A stretch of DNA of 64,000 nt from Candidatus Moranbacteria bacterium GW2011_GWC2_40_12 (GCA_000995965.1 LBYD01000003.1:17713-81712), one strand, 5' to 3'. Shown: positions 12,413 to 50,978, numbered from the stretch's first letter. The notes: a model not told the origin generated them from the letters alone. Translations and numbers: made by a program.

Positions 12413-12432
12413 AATATTTCAAAATCCTTTGT

Positions 12433-12504
12433 AGCCTCTAGGGGAATCGAACCCCTCTTACTAGGATGAGAACCTAGCGTCCTAGCCGATAGACGAAGAG
12501 GCCA
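12433..12504 (-). tRNA. tRNA-Glu (anticodon CUC)
   Basis: Cloverleaf: acceptor GGCCUCU/AGAGGCU, D-arm GUCU..GGAC, anticodon loop UUCUCAU, T-arm AGGGGUUCGAUUCCCCU, discriminator A. No encoded CCA. Confidence 0.8.
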
Positions 12505-12655: not shown

Positions 12656-12874
12656 TTAGGCTTTGCCAACAGGATTGTAGGCGTAGTTGCACCCAAGTCT
12701 AGAGGTGCAAGGCATGGGCCCATTTCCATAGAAGATACAGGATGGGCATTGCTCTGAAAAATGTCGCTCGGGTTCTTTTATGGTGATGAATCCCATTTTT
12801 GAAAAGCGGCTTTCCCTTACAATTTCCTGGAAAGCCTCAGCCGCTGCCATTAAACTTCCTTCAGATGAATTCAT
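12656..12874 (-). CDS. small Cys-rich ORF (72 aa) with GGAGG SD, embedded in a structured GC-rich RNA region
   Basis: ggagg sits 4-5 nt before the ATG. The C-terminus reads CPSCIFYGNGPMPCTSRLGCNY. The 3' end lies inside a GGGCCC...GGGCCC-closed helix domain followed by a U-tract. Confidence 0.3.
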   Translation of the reverse strand: MNSSEGSLMAAAEAFQEIVRESRFSKMGFITIKEPERHFSEQCPSCIFYGNGPMPCTSRLGCNYAYNPVGKA

Positions 12875-12978: not shown

Positions 12979-13218
12979 TTTTGTGTTTTCTTCCAAAAAA
13001 CACAAAACGACCCAGCGTATCGCGTGGATCGTTTGTTAAAGAGCTGACGGTTGTCCCCTATTTCATCCCGCCGCAACTTTGGCGAAGGCGGATTTATTTC
13101 TACAGCCGTGAGCTCTCTTAGATATTCAATTTTGCCGAATTTTATTTTCCCCTTTTTATTTCAACGCCTCTTTATTCTACTCCACTGAAAATATCGGTCA
13201 AGCCGGAGTTATCCACAA

Positions 13219-18102: not shown

Positions 18103-18190
18103 AAATGCAAAAATCAAAATGAAAAATGACAGTGTAAAATTCAAAATATTTTTTCATTTTGAATTGTCATTTTGACTTTTGATTTTTAAT
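18103..18190. repeat. heptad-periodic palindromic element (ATGNAAA/CAAAATG variant)
   Basis: atgcaaa atgcaaa aatcaaa atgaaaa atgacag ..., then complementary ttttcat tttgaat tgtcatt ttgactt ttgattt units. Confidence 0.7.
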
Positions 18191-18620
18191 ATATTCCGAG
18201 TTTACCAAGCTGTTCCGCAATTTCATCTGTGTTTTTTTCAGCTTCCTTCTTATACTTGCCCCATTTTTCTCCATCCCAGATTTCAAGGCGGTTATAGAGC
18301 CCCGCAATCACCACTTCTTTTTTGAGTCCGGCATACTCCTTGAGATAGTCGGGGATAAGAACCCGGCCAAGCTTGTCGATGTCGACATCCACCGCGCCCG
18401 CCAGCATGAGCCTCACGAAACTTCGCGTTCCCGACTCCCCCATCGGTAGACTTCCAAGTTTCGAAGACAGATCCTCCCAAGTTTTCATTGGATATACGAA
18501 AAGGCATTTATCAAGTCCGCGCGTGACAACTGCCCGTCCGGAAAAAACCTCCCTGAATTTTGACGGAATAGCTACGCGCTTTTTCGGATCTATGTTGTGA
18601 GAATATTCACCAATAAACAT
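18186..18620 (-). CDS. mraZ: transcriptional regulator MraZ
   Basis: Begins MFIGEYSHNIDPKKRVAIPSKFRE and has duplicated MraZ domains. ATG at 18620; the track extends upstream to TTG 18677 across the DnaA boxes. Confidence 0.9.
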   Translation of the reverse strand: MFIGEYSHNIDPKKRVAIPSKFREVFSGRAVVTRGLDKCLFVYPMKTWEDLSSKLGSLPMGESGTRSFVRLMLAGAVDVDIDKLGRVLIPDYLKEYAGLKKEVVIAGLYNRLEIWDGEKWGKYKKEAEKNTDEIAEQLGKLGIY

Positions 18621-18667
18621 TTTTTCAAGACGACAAAGAAAAATACAAACCGTGTTCCCCCGTTTGT

Positions 18668-18826
18668 TTATCCACAAAGTGGCCTAGTTATCCCCACTTC
18701 TATCCACTTTGCAACACTATGAATACATTTTAATCCACTACTAAACATCAGTCAACACTTCATTCCAAAATAATAAATCGCTTATATAAGCAACGAGGAA
18801 GAGAATCTACGCACAAGTTATCCCCA
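18668..18826 (+). promoter_or_regulatory. cluster of five DnaA-box-like 9-mers in the mraZ / 19007 divergent intergenic region
   Basis: TTATCCACA at 18668-76 is a perfect match. TTATCCCCA at 18688-96, TATCCACT at ~18700, TAATCCACT at ~18730 and TTATCCCCA at 18818-26 follow. All are in the same orientation and an AT-rich stretch follows at 18840-18960. Confidence 0.45.
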
Positions 18827-19006
18827 TTTCGCACAAAGAATGAACCAAAATAGAAAAACGATAGGAAGTTTATTATTATCTTTTATTTTCTGATGATAAA
18901 AAATCTTGGAGAATTTTTCTATTCATGATTCGCGCCTTTTGATCCGCCCTTGCGCAGTTTTGAAAGCGATTGTATAATTCAAGTGTAATATAAAAACAGA
19001 AACAAA

Positions 19007-19798
19007 ATGCGAGCGGCTGATGGGGGTTTTTTCTTTGCCAGCTCTTCGCAAAATTTTAGAATGCCAAAAAAGAAAAAAAGTGAAAAAGACAACGGTCAGG
19101 AACTCCAAAAAATCGCCGCTATTCGCGAAATGATTGCGAATGCCGAGCGCACAATCGTGTCCGCGCGGGCGATGCTTTCCCAGCTTGAAGGAAAGCCTAT
19201 GAAAAGATCCGCACCGATAATTTCCTCCGACGAAGAGGGAGAAATTGTGGAAGGAGTTTTTGACGGCCAAGTAATGATGGGAACCGACGGAAAGCAATAT
19301 CCCGTCCCGGCTAATTACGCTTCGAAATCGAAATTAGTCGAGGGAGATATGCTGAAACTAACAATCACTCCGGACGGTTCTTTTGTTTATAAACAAATCG
19401 GCCCGGTGGAGCGCAAGCGCCTTATCGGAATCGTGAGTCAGGATGACTTGGGAAATTATGTCGTCCTCGCCGAAGGGAAGGCGTATCGCGTGCTTCTCGC
19501 TTCCGTCACCTACTTCAAGGCCGAGCCGGCCGATGAAGTCACCGTGGTCGTCCCAAGGGACAGCGATTCTGTTTGGGGAGCGATTGAAAATTTGGTGAGA
19601 AAAGGAGTTGGCGGGACGGATTTCTCAGCGGAAGATTTTGGGAAAGAAGAAAATCCAGAAGAGGAAAAGGAGGATAAAATCATCAAAAGCACCAAAGACA
19701 AGCTCGGCCAGGATGGCAAATTGGAAGGTGATTTCATAGATGAGTGGACGCCGGAACTGGAAAAATTGAGAGAAGAAGCCAGTAGGCCTGTGGTTTAA
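19007..19798 (+). CDS. hypothetical protein with acidic C-terminal tail
   Basis: 263-aa ORF with an alternative ATG at 19061 (MPKKKK). Basic N-terminus and E/D-rich C-terminus. No motif recognised. Confidence 0.55.
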   Translation: MRAADGGFFFASSSQNFRMPKKKKSEKDNGQELQKIAAIREMIANAERTIVSARAMLSQLEGKPMKRSAPIISSDEEGEIVEGVFDGQVMMGTDGKQYPVPANYASKSKLVEGDMLKLTITPDGSFVYKQIGPVERKRLIGIVSQDDLGNYVVLAEGKAYRVLLASVTYFKAEPADEVTVVVPRDSDSVWGAIENLVRKGVGGTDFSAEDFGKEENPEEEKEDKIIKSTKDKLGQDGKLEGDFIDEWTPELEKLREEASRPVV

Positions 19799-50754: not shown

Positions 50755-50978
50755 TTTTTTATATTTCACAAACCAAAACTAAACTTATCTTATAAGTCTC
50801 CAAAATTTTTGTTTTTATATTACGTTTAAATTATACCACAAAAACTTTCTGAAGTGAACAACTCTCGGCGGTGTGGATAAGTCCGAGCAATTTTCTCTCA
50901 AAAGAAAAAGCCCCAGCGCCGCCCTCGAGTGGAAATCCACATGGGTTTGGCGCCAGAGGCTTTGAAGTTTGGCGATCC

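Follow-up and report, generated by a model that had tools for sequence, protein, structure and literature searches.

Published MraZ operators are built from GTG(G/T) boxes, which are present in three to four copies with 6-nt spacers and in which the transcription start site lies inside box 1. The E. coli repeats are said to read TGGGN, as reportedly described by Eraso in 2014; the B. subtilis operator contains GTGG[A/T]G three times with 4-nt spacers, and the repeats of the Mollicutes have the form AAAGTG[T/G]. Cryo-EM work indicates that MraZ makes base contacts with essentially only TG(T/G), using residues K13, R15 and R86, which are held by D11 and D82. An MraZ octamer is able to engage a single box. 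We have used the MraZ operators of E. coli, B. subtilis and Mycoplasma (Fisunov 2016, White 2022 preprint, Sanchez-Alba 2026, PMC12957436) as a reference for the region upstream of mraZ in a genome of Candidatus Moranbacteria, a group of the Patescibacteria/CPR.

A second system to which this region can be compared is the replication initiator DnaA. In Caulobacter, DnaA controls division genes (ftsZ and others), and DnaA can also serve as a transcriptional roadblock. The DnaA-box consensus is TTWTNCACA. A ChIP-seq study in E. coli revealed that DnaA binds double boxes, that is two direct 9-mers 2-3 bp apart, one of which is near the consensus, typically with flanks of the form g-TTATCCACA-g, and that DnaA binds isolated boxes only poorly in vivo (PMC11317965).

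The window, by which we mean the whole 64-kb stretch of DNA that was analysed, was assigned to contig DNMH01000001.1 of GCA_003489455.1 and has a GC content of 44% and not the ~40% that an earlier note on this sequence had given for the genome. In the window, mraZ is the first gene of a minus-strand mraZ-rsmH-ftsL-ftsI(PBP)-Mur ligase order, and the genes behind it were identified as rsmH (Methyltransf_5), ftsL/DivIC-like, PBP and Mur ligase, all on the minus strand. The true start of mraZ is the ATG at 18620; a TTG at 18677 is a mechanical call of the ORF listing and was rejected as start codon. The sequence of the 144-aa product, MFIGEYSHNID11PK13KR15 ... D82KLGR86, retains all five DNA-contact residues, D11, K13 and R15 within D11-P-K13-K-R15 and D82 and R86 within D82-K-L-G-R86. 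The divergent neighbour is a conserved gene of 246-263 aa without known function, which starts at 19007 or 19058. By scanning a genome collection for MraZ, we obtained 80 species-level Moranbacteria loci, each of up to 12 kb and 821 kb in total. These loci are phylogenetically related, and the counts reported for them therefore exceed the number of independent events. The clade of the window comprises 14 species-level genomes, whose MraZ proteins are 88-100% identical. Among the related loci, the gene upstream of mraZ is co-directional in 52 and divergent in 20, and the upstream gap is often 150-250 bp long. The earlier note had described five DnaA-box-like 9-mers in a single orientation within 160 bp upstream of mraZ. 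All five are present and span 159 bp; mismatches are counted against the DnaA box, and the Moranbacteria lineage may use a consensus other than TTATNCACA:

18186-18620, minus strand: mraZ coding sequence, 144 aa (PF02381 match and 100%-identical 144-aa Candidatus Moranbacteria proteins named MraZ)
18668-18676, plus strand: box 1, TTATCCACA, no mismatch to the DnaA box
18688-18696, plus strand: box 2, TTATCCCCA, one mismatch, at position 7
18700-18708, plus strand: box 3, CTATCCACT, two mismatches
18731-18739, plus strand: box 4, TAATCCACT, two mismatches
18818-18826, plus strand: box 5, TTATCCCCA, one mismatch, at position 7

This cluster is the densest of the 64-kb window, both for boxes with two or fewer mismatches and for boxes with one or none. 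In 300 dinucleotide-preserving shuffles, which served as the null model, five same-strand boxes with up to two mismatches within 160 bp were reached in 1.7% of cases. Three boxes with up to one mismatch in 160 bp did not occur in any shuffle, and hence both criteria together were reached in 0/300. In addition, 13 species-level relatives keep all five boxes almost unchanged between variable flanks. Shuffles and conservation together bear out the earlier suggestion that the cluster is improbable by chance. The main point was missed in the earlier note: four of the five boxes lie on phased GTG(G/T) repeats of an MraZ operator. This overlap arises because DnaA-type boxes and MraZ boxes are both built around GTGG. 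Read on the mraZ-sense strand, where the boxes appear as (A)AGTGG, boxes 1 to 5 are TGTGGATAA, (AAG)TGGGGATAA, AGTGGATAG, AGTGGATTA and TGGGGATAA. The minus-strand GTG(G/T) cores start at 18758, 18738, 18717, 18707, 18697 and 18675, which corresponds to spacings of 20, 21, 10, 10 and 22 bp, and they accompany a predicted promoter, PmraZ:

18766-18794, minus strand: hairpin GTTGCTTATATAAGCGAT with a T-rich tract behind it, located between PmraZ and the distal element described below
18735-18758, minus strand: two GTG(G/T) cores two helical turns apart, GTGT at 18758-18755 and GTGG at 18738-18735
18727-18755, minus strand: PmraZ, predicted, sigma-70-type, with -35 TTGACT (18755-18750), a 17-nt spacer and -10 TAAAAT (18732-18727)
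18694-18717, minus strand: MraZ-box triple GTGT-N6-GTGG-N6-GTGG with cores at 18717-18714, 18707-18704 and 18697-18694

PmraZ is the best promoter match in the region (10/12), and its predicted transcription start near 18720 would give a 5' UTR of ~100 nt. The predicted promoter places the cores at -35, at -10 and at about +4 to +27. The GTGT at 18758-18755 abuts the -35 (AAGTGTTGAC), the GTGG at 18738-18735, which is part of box 4, adjoins the -10 (GTGGATTAAAAT). Box 3 and the 5' part of box 2 belong to the triple. The pattern GTG[GT]-N6-GTGG-N6-GTGG has a single occurrence in the window and was found in 23 of the 80 related loci and nowhere else in their 821 kb. The shorter GTGG-N6-GTGG is present in sense orientation within 400 nt of the ATG in 74/80 loci, and its density is 2.34 per kb upstream of mraZ versus 0.0087 per kb elsewhere (~270-fold). 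The cores at -35 and -10 are invariant in the 14-genome clade and present in 79/81 loci. An arrangement of GTGTTGAC ... GTGGnnTAnAAT is likewise seen in 79/81 mraZ upstream regions, for which the layout, anchored on the -10, can be written as (A)AGTGTTGAC, 11 nt, GTGGnnTA(A/G)AAT, ~10-20 nt and AAGTGG-N4-AAGTGG. The other promoter-like sites of the window lack GTG(G/T) cores, save for a window-specific GTGG after the Mur ligase gene. We also considered GTGGnnTAnAAT as a general promoter class and discarded this idea, as the sequence is confined to PmraZ and one window-specific copy. The stem of the hairpin upstream of PmraZ covaries in the clade (TCGCTT..AAGCGA, TGGCTT..AAGCCA, TAGCTT..AAGCTA); it falls under the threshold of the terminator scan, which is three G-C pairs, and it looks like a weak intrinsic terminator or an insulator.

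The cluster shares several features with known MraZ operators: it lies directly upstream of mraZ, it contains three contiguous GTG(G/T) direct repeats with 6-nt spacers, the repeats would begin at or beside the predicted transcription start and overlap the predicted core promoter, and the cognate MraZ carries D11, K13, R15, D82 and R86. In contrast to the known operators, two extra conserved cores, two helical turns apart, are located at -35 and -10, a longer TGTGNATAAC(TT) element, which is often doubled, is found 31-90 bp upstream of the -10 core, and the repeats of the window's clade carry an invariant GATAA extension. None of these, extra cores, upstream element or extension, is reported for the known MraZ operators. 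Since architecture and conservation match the published MraZ operator, we propose with high confidence that the main function of the cluster is the autorepression of PmraZ by MraZ. By analogy, oligomeric MraZ would bind the GTG(G/T) cores cooperatively and shut off its own operon. The cores would lie on one helix face over the predicted PmraZ, with mraZ beginning 100 nt downstream, and MraZ oligomers covering the phased cores from ~-38 to ~+27 would block RNA polymerase, a step for which the analogy is strong. As an MraZ operator, the element is of a known kind and a new member from the CPR; the locus thus provides a clear MraZ-operator example in a group in which almost no regulation has been described.

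A second motif, of the DnaA-box type, is superimposed on this operator:

18807-18826, plus strand: distal element, consisting of box 5 and a partner, CTACGCACA (18807-18815)-AG-TTATCCCCA (18818-18826), with a 2-bp spacer
18688-18708, plus strand: boxes 2 and 3 as a double DnaA-type box, TTATCCCCA-ctt-CTATCCACT, with a 3-bp spacer

The distal element is located ~60 bp upstream of the -35. Its form in the relatives, TTACnCACA-AG-TTATCCACT, is nearly invariant in the clade, and the related loci give an extended consensus of C-TGTGGATAA-CTT (C-TGTG-N-ATAA-CTT), in which, in the TGTGGATAA orientation, a C precedes the 9-mer and C-T follow it. The 5-mer in front of ATAA[CG]T was TGTGG in 23, TGTGT in 6 and TGTGC in 1 of 42 cases, which indicates that the varying position is the N of the DnaA consensus TTWTNCACA. 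A sense-strand box with up to one mismatch is present upstream of the promoter in 58/79 loci, and 39 perfect sense 9-mers were counted in 32 kb of upstream sequence, versus ~0.12 expected. The distances from the element to the -10 core fall into discrete groups of 31-32, 71-77 and 84-90 bp. A partner box at 2-3 bp with a score of at least 7/9 accompanies 36% of the mraZ-upstream boxes, versus 0.7% in the background, and perfect double boxes are found in three loci (L064, L068, L073). The distal double boxes have an 11-bp period and not the 10-bp period of MraZ. In co-directional loci, the DnaA-type box follows a stop codon and precedes a terminator. We also examined the distal box as the promoter of a short transcript and rejected it, since a -10 is missing at the right distance.

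In the window's clade, the second motif is not confined to the distal position. The bases 18688-18708, which are invariant in the clade, hold two MraZ cores with a 10-bp period (AAGTGGATAG AAGTGG-GG-ATAAC) in addition to boxes 2 and 3, whose partner score is 7/9 in the window and 8/9 in the relatives (background for at least 7: 0.7%). The proximal pair of the clade can be written as AAGTGGATAG-AAGTGGGGATAA(C/G)T; its GTGG cores are 10 bp and its GGATA cores 12 bp apart, and it is the extra GG that reconciles the MraZ and the DnaA-type registers. Box 1 lies within the 5' UTR, where it covers about +45 to +53 and is separated from box 2 by 20 bp. In the clade, it keeps GGATAA in 13/14 genomes at the fixed 20-bp distance, with an otherwise variable sequence, and GTG(G/T) in only ~6/14 (variants TGGGG, TGCGG, AGGGG); it is therefore a box-type (GGATAA) element and not a conserved MraZ box. 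The proximal repeats outside the clade are AAGTGG[G/T]GnA, unlike DnaA boxes and distinct from the distal element. L123, a more distant locus outside the clade whose MraZ is 59% identical, also has perfect TGTGGATAAC copies within its operator. That five 'DnaA boxes' are visible in the window is thus due to the overlap of MraZ and DnaA-type motifs in this clade. Only one or two such boxes would show in most Moranbacteria, and the mraZ upstream region of most relatives consists of one or two boxes, a terminator and a promoter.

The motif recurs at the other end of the operon:

13174-13217, minus strand: second conserved perfect box, TGTGGATAAC (13217-13209), 7 nt upstream of the -35 of TTGACC-16-TAGAAT

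This box, referred to as site 2, lies at 13209-13217, just past the end of the Mur ligase coding sequence (13219). In ~20 related loci, the same perfect box likewise lies 4.8-5.8 kb downstream of the mraZ ATG, past the Mur ligase gene and mostly 6-8 nt upstream of a TTGAC -35; it is inverted in five of them (L020, L022, L024, L040, L049). The site-2 boxes are single, without a double-box partner. A third perfect box of the window, at 50872, is ~10 nt upstream of a -35-like hexamer, and the single perfect boxes after the Mur ligase gene and at 50872 thus adjoin the -35 of two other promoters. As to the density of boxes in general, the earlier note had pointed out that a similar density throughout would indicate chance. 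Boxes with up to one mismatch are indeed enriched over the whole window (22 observed versus 11.6 +/- 3.3 expected). Perfect boxes outside the two hot spots, upstream of mraZ and at site 2, occur at chance level in the 821 kb (~10 versus ~6 expected), suggesting that any DnaA regulon near dcw is very small.

Because MraZ contacts only GTG(G/T), the second motif is probably the site of another protein, most plausibly DnaA; contacts of this kind cannot explain 9-12 conserved positions or isolated and inverted copies. From the sequence pattern, we regard binding of the box-type elements by DnaA as somewhat better than an even proposition. The idea of the earlier note that DnaA controls the mraZ/dcw promoter is therefore plausible for part of the cluster, namely the conserved element with the DnaA consensus. 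The closest parallel is provided by the double DnaA boxes of E. coli at nrdA, purH, polA, mioC, rpoH and dnaA (Stringer et al. 2024, PMC11317965). As in E. coli, the Moranbacteria elements are direct 9-mers 2-3 bp apart in promoter regions, one of them near TTATCCACA, with a degenerate partner that keeps CACA and with g...g flanks. The distal pair of the window, CTACGCACA-AG-TTATCCCCA, resembles the E. coli purH pair TTACGCACA-gag-TTATCCACA, and TTATCCCCA resembles the mioC box TTAATCCCA. The two systems differ in that the Moranbacteria target is a division and cell-wall operon and not nucleotide or replication genes, that the Moranbacteria elements overlap the operator of another repressor, and that the site-2 boxes are single. 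The proposal would also resemble the situation in Caulobacter, where replication is tied to division by an initiator that doubles as a transcription factor, whereas lineage and target promoter are different. Several observations count against DnaA: boxes 2 and 5 (TTATCCCCA) break the normally invariant CACA, the boxes of site 2 are single, and the box-type elements contain the MraZ core and share with the MraZ boxes their orientation (39/40 perfect copies) and apparently their phasing. In a metagenome scan for TGTGGATAAC-N4-34-TGTGGATAAC, we obtained 120 loci from mixed phyla, none of them recognisably Moranbacteria; about a dozen adjoin dnaA, and several are tandem arrays in phage-like contigs.

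The core and the orientation shared with the MraZ boxes, the discrete distances and the positions within operators would also fit an MraZ with an extended sequence preference. One might therefore speculate that MraZ alone reads all five boxes as well as the distal and site-2 elements, with the conserved ATAAC extension reflecting either a lineage-specific preference or a high-affinity site where the oligomer would nucleate and then spread, or loop, to the promoter. Each box-type element contains or abuts a GTGG-like core, the distances from the -10 core number three, TGTGGATAAC-type sequences stand where canonical MraZ boxes would lie in the operators of the window's clade and of L123, and a single box can be engaged by an MraZ octamer. 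Nevertheless, we consider MraZ as the only reader unlikely, though worth serious thought. The base contacts seen by cryo-EM, nearly restricted to TG(T/G), have to be set against 9-12 invariant positions, and the proximal boxes outside the clade prefer GTGG[G/T]G and not GTGGAT. The 11-bp period of the distal doubles does not agree with the 10-bp period of MraZ, clade box 1 and box 5 of the window (ATGGGG) have no GTG(G/T) and yet keep GGATAA, and the boxes at site 2 are single and sometimes inverted.

Alternatively, a third transcription factor other than DnaA could read TGTGNATAAC(TT) at three sites, namely PmraZ, the promoter that follows the Mur ligase gene, and 50872. Such a factor would account for a motif that is conserved, clearly distinct from the MraZ repeats, limited to a few promoters and extended by a CTT flank beyond the classical 9-mer. 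On the other hand, the element equals the universal DnaA box at 9/9 positions, the one place where it varies is precisely the N of the DnaA consensus, and double-box geometry and flanks match the sites bound by DnaA in E. coli. CPR genomes also encode few transcription factors. We consider this explanation improbable. Ter, parS, NrdR, LacI-type and Fur-type sites were also considered and dismissed, as their sequences do not fit.

The earlier note had also raised the possibility of an oriC-like region away from dnaA. Several DnaA-box-like 9-mers in one orientation near AT-rich DNA are indeed reminiscent of a bacterial oriC, and the spacer between the divergent promoters had been considered to be AT-rich over ~120 bp:

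18840-18960, no strand assigned: AT-rich spacer between the divergent promoters, 68.6% AT, not conserved in relatives

The AT content itself was confirmed, but it is unremarkable, as intergenic gaps have a mean of 61.8% and 5% of 120-bp windows are equally AT-rich. With an ordinary AT content and a sequence that varies among relatives, 18840-18960 was rejected as a DNA-unwinding element. Expressed on the plus strand, genes to the left of the site have a GC3 skew of -0.111, and to the right the values are -0.102 for plus-strand and -0.105 for minus-strand genes; the sign is the same on either side, from which it follows that the replication-associated bias does not switch at the site. The cumulative GC skew, which had been proposed as a check, runs from 0 to -6.1 across the window without a turning point at 18.8 kb, and GC skew in the window follows gene orientation. 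oriC linkage to dnaA and dnaN is usual, not obligatory. We found dnaA neither in the window nor among the genes called on the contig extensions, which reach ~10 kb beyond the window's first and ~8 kb beyond its last base, nor in the 80 related loci: a DnaA signature was absent from the six-frame translations of the window and the 821 kb, and neither dnaA (within 6 kb) nor dnaN was found near mraZ in the 80 related species. Thus, the region 18660-18830 is almost certainly not a replication origin. In favour of an origin upstream of mraZ, or of a locus there that titrates DnaA as datA or DnaA-box clusters do, one could cite the AT-rich stretch with five box-like 9-mers beside it in 159 bp, and the TGTGGATAAC pair clusters that often adjoin dnaA in metagenome contigs. 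Unlike an oriC, however, the window has no skew switch, no dnaA or dnaN found nearby, including the extended contig, and no conserved or unusually AT-rich unwinding element. Its boxes coincide with a promoter and an operator, four of the five with MraZ cores, and in relatives the region is mostly 150-250 bp with one or two boxes, a terminator and a promoter. We therefore give origin or titration very little credence. In the searched literature on CPR oriC, nothing informative was found. Had the oriC reading been accepted, an origin would have been put in the wrong place; the data presented here dispose of that reading. As a general caution, GTGG-based MraZ boxes can mimic DnaA boxes and lead to false origin predictions upstream of mraZ. 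A functionless chance cluster is next to inconceivable, for although GTGG- and GGATAA-like words are short and the window holds twice the expected number of 1-mismatch boxes, the cluster was reproduced by 0/300 shuffles, its five boxes are nearly invariant between variable flanks in 14 species-level genomes, and its architecture is common to 79/81 loci.

Taken together, an MraZ operator at PmraZ with superimposed DnaA-type elements, and not an origin, is the overall explanation that we favour, with a moderate degree of confidence. In this model, a second protein, probably DnaA, would bind to the distal double box and, in the window's clade, also to the pair of boxes 3 and 2 and to box 1. DnaA would feed the replication status into the expression of division and cell-wall genes, and this input could be of either sign: the box positions downstream of the promoter suggest co-repression or a roadblock, and the position of site 2 beside the -35 would also allow for activation. 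Going further, and only tentatively, as we incline slightly to doubt the model in its full form, the Moranbacteria dcw operon might have a composite operator read by MraZ (GTG(G/T), 10-bp period) and by DnaA (TGTGNATAA double boxes, 11-12-bp period). Both registers would be written into the same bases in the window's clade (AAGTGGATAG-AAGTGG-GG-ATAAC), and DnaA-type boxes would bracket the mraZ-to-Mur-ligase operon at both ends, the second of which would drive a new structured RNA leader. In the searched literature, we found no description of a DnaA box at mraZ, such as the conserved DnaA-type element of PmraZ, or of a dual-register operator. The point of interest is a class-wide second motif that cannot be told apart from a double DnaA box. 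Should DnaA bind this motif, these minimal cells would couple the initiation of replication directly to their division and cell-wall operon, by way of an operator that DnaA has in common with MraZ. The composite model, if true, would give organisms with very few regulators a direct and conserved route by which the replication initiator acts on genes for division and the cell wall.

As a separate observation, a conserved leader of ~190 nt (13170-12985) would be expressed from the promoter behind the Mur ligase gene; it is followed by a terminator, and no Rfam family match was obtained for it. The leader contains a 15-bp stem that is 98% paired in a trimmed alignment, versus 34-54% in slid controls, and six of its pairs show compensatory changes.

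A mechanical listing of open reading frames starts mraZ at TTG 18677, which would place box 1, the perfect copy of the DnaA-box consensus at 18668-18676, within the coding sequence. This start (region 18621-18677) was rejected, as the homologues are all 144 amino acids long and begin with MFIGEY; the true mraZ start is therefore ATG 18620, which puts box 1 into the 5' UTR. At the other end of the mraZ-rsmH-ftsL-PBP-Mur ligase operon, past the Mur ligase coding sequence (end 13219), the window contains the following features:

13174-13217, minus strand: perfect box TGTGGATAAC, directly past the Mur ligase gene, and promoter TTGACC-16-TAGAAT
12985-13170, minus strand: conserved leader or ncRNA of ~190 nt, downstream of this promoter
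12656-12874, minus strand: 72-aa cysteine-rich ORF without a Pfam match, 3' of the structured leader
12432-12503: tRNA

Here, 7 nt separate the box from the promoter downstream of it. The layout with a box beside the -35 element is kept past the Mur ligase gene in ~20 species, 4.8-5.8 kb downstream of the mraZ start codon, with the box being inverted in five of them (loci L020, L022, L024, L040 and L049). This conserved position indicates that the operon from mraZ to the Mur ligase gene is bracketed by box-type elements. A third perfect box is found elsewhere in the window:

50872-50880: TTATCCACA on the minus strand

It is enclosed by a short inverted repeat, CTCGG...CCGAG, and is located ~10 nt upstream of a promoter-like TTGTTC-17-TGGTATAAT, downstream of which a 514-aa protein without a Pfam match is encoded. 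Thus, all three perfect boxes of the window are intergenic and all three adjoin promoter-like sites.

The stem of the ~190-nt leader is formed by GAGAGCT..ACGGTTG / YAACCGT..AGCTCTT, replaced in the related loci L011-L013 by GAGGTAC / GTACCTT. AATAGGGGA constitutes an invariant loop or junction; the leader also has an optional inserted hairpin, and a covarying terminator comes last. In the trimmed alignment, pairing is retained in 98% of cells, compared with 34-54% in slid controls, and double changes are seen in six pairs. No Rfam family matched the leader at E<=1. It is a candidate for a new riboswitch or attenuator.

Box-type elements also occur in metagenome contigs:

L123 3800-3990, minus strand: operator
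L138 1399-1452: TGTGGATAAC tandem array
L208 565-654: TGTGGATAAC tandem array
L152 18-126: TGTGGATAAC tandem array
L209 2642-2977: TGTGGATAAC tandem array
L114 3299-3473: TGTGGATAAC tandem array

The L123 operator, on a contig whose MraZ is only 59% identical to that of the window, reads CTGTGGATAAC-TGTGGGAAAAC-TGGCAGGATC-TGTGGATAAC with an 11-bp period and lies downstream of GGTGTTGAC, with an additional CTGTGGATAAAG upstream. Box-type and MraZ-type repeats therefore overlap outside the window's clade as well. The five tandem arrays likewise have an 11-bp period, and the ORFs beside them appear phage-like by inspection only, coding for structural-protein-like and small basic DNA-binding-like proteins.

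Two further features lie upstream of mraZ:

18766-18794, minus strand: hairpin and T tract between the distal element (18807-18826) and the predicted mraZ promoter (18727-18755)
19007/19058-19798, plus strand: divergent gene for a 246-263-aa protein without a Pfam domain

The hairpin stem covaries among the 14 genomes of the window's clade; in the window, though, the gene upstream of it is divergent, which leaves no obvious transcript for the hairpin to terminate. The divergently encoded protein is basic and possibly coiled in its N-terminal region and carries an acidic tail at the C-terminus. In 32 of the 80 species-level Moranbacteria loci, its gene is conserved upstream of mraZ and on the strand opposite to it, as the immediate neighbour in 15, and in other genomes inserted genes separate the two.
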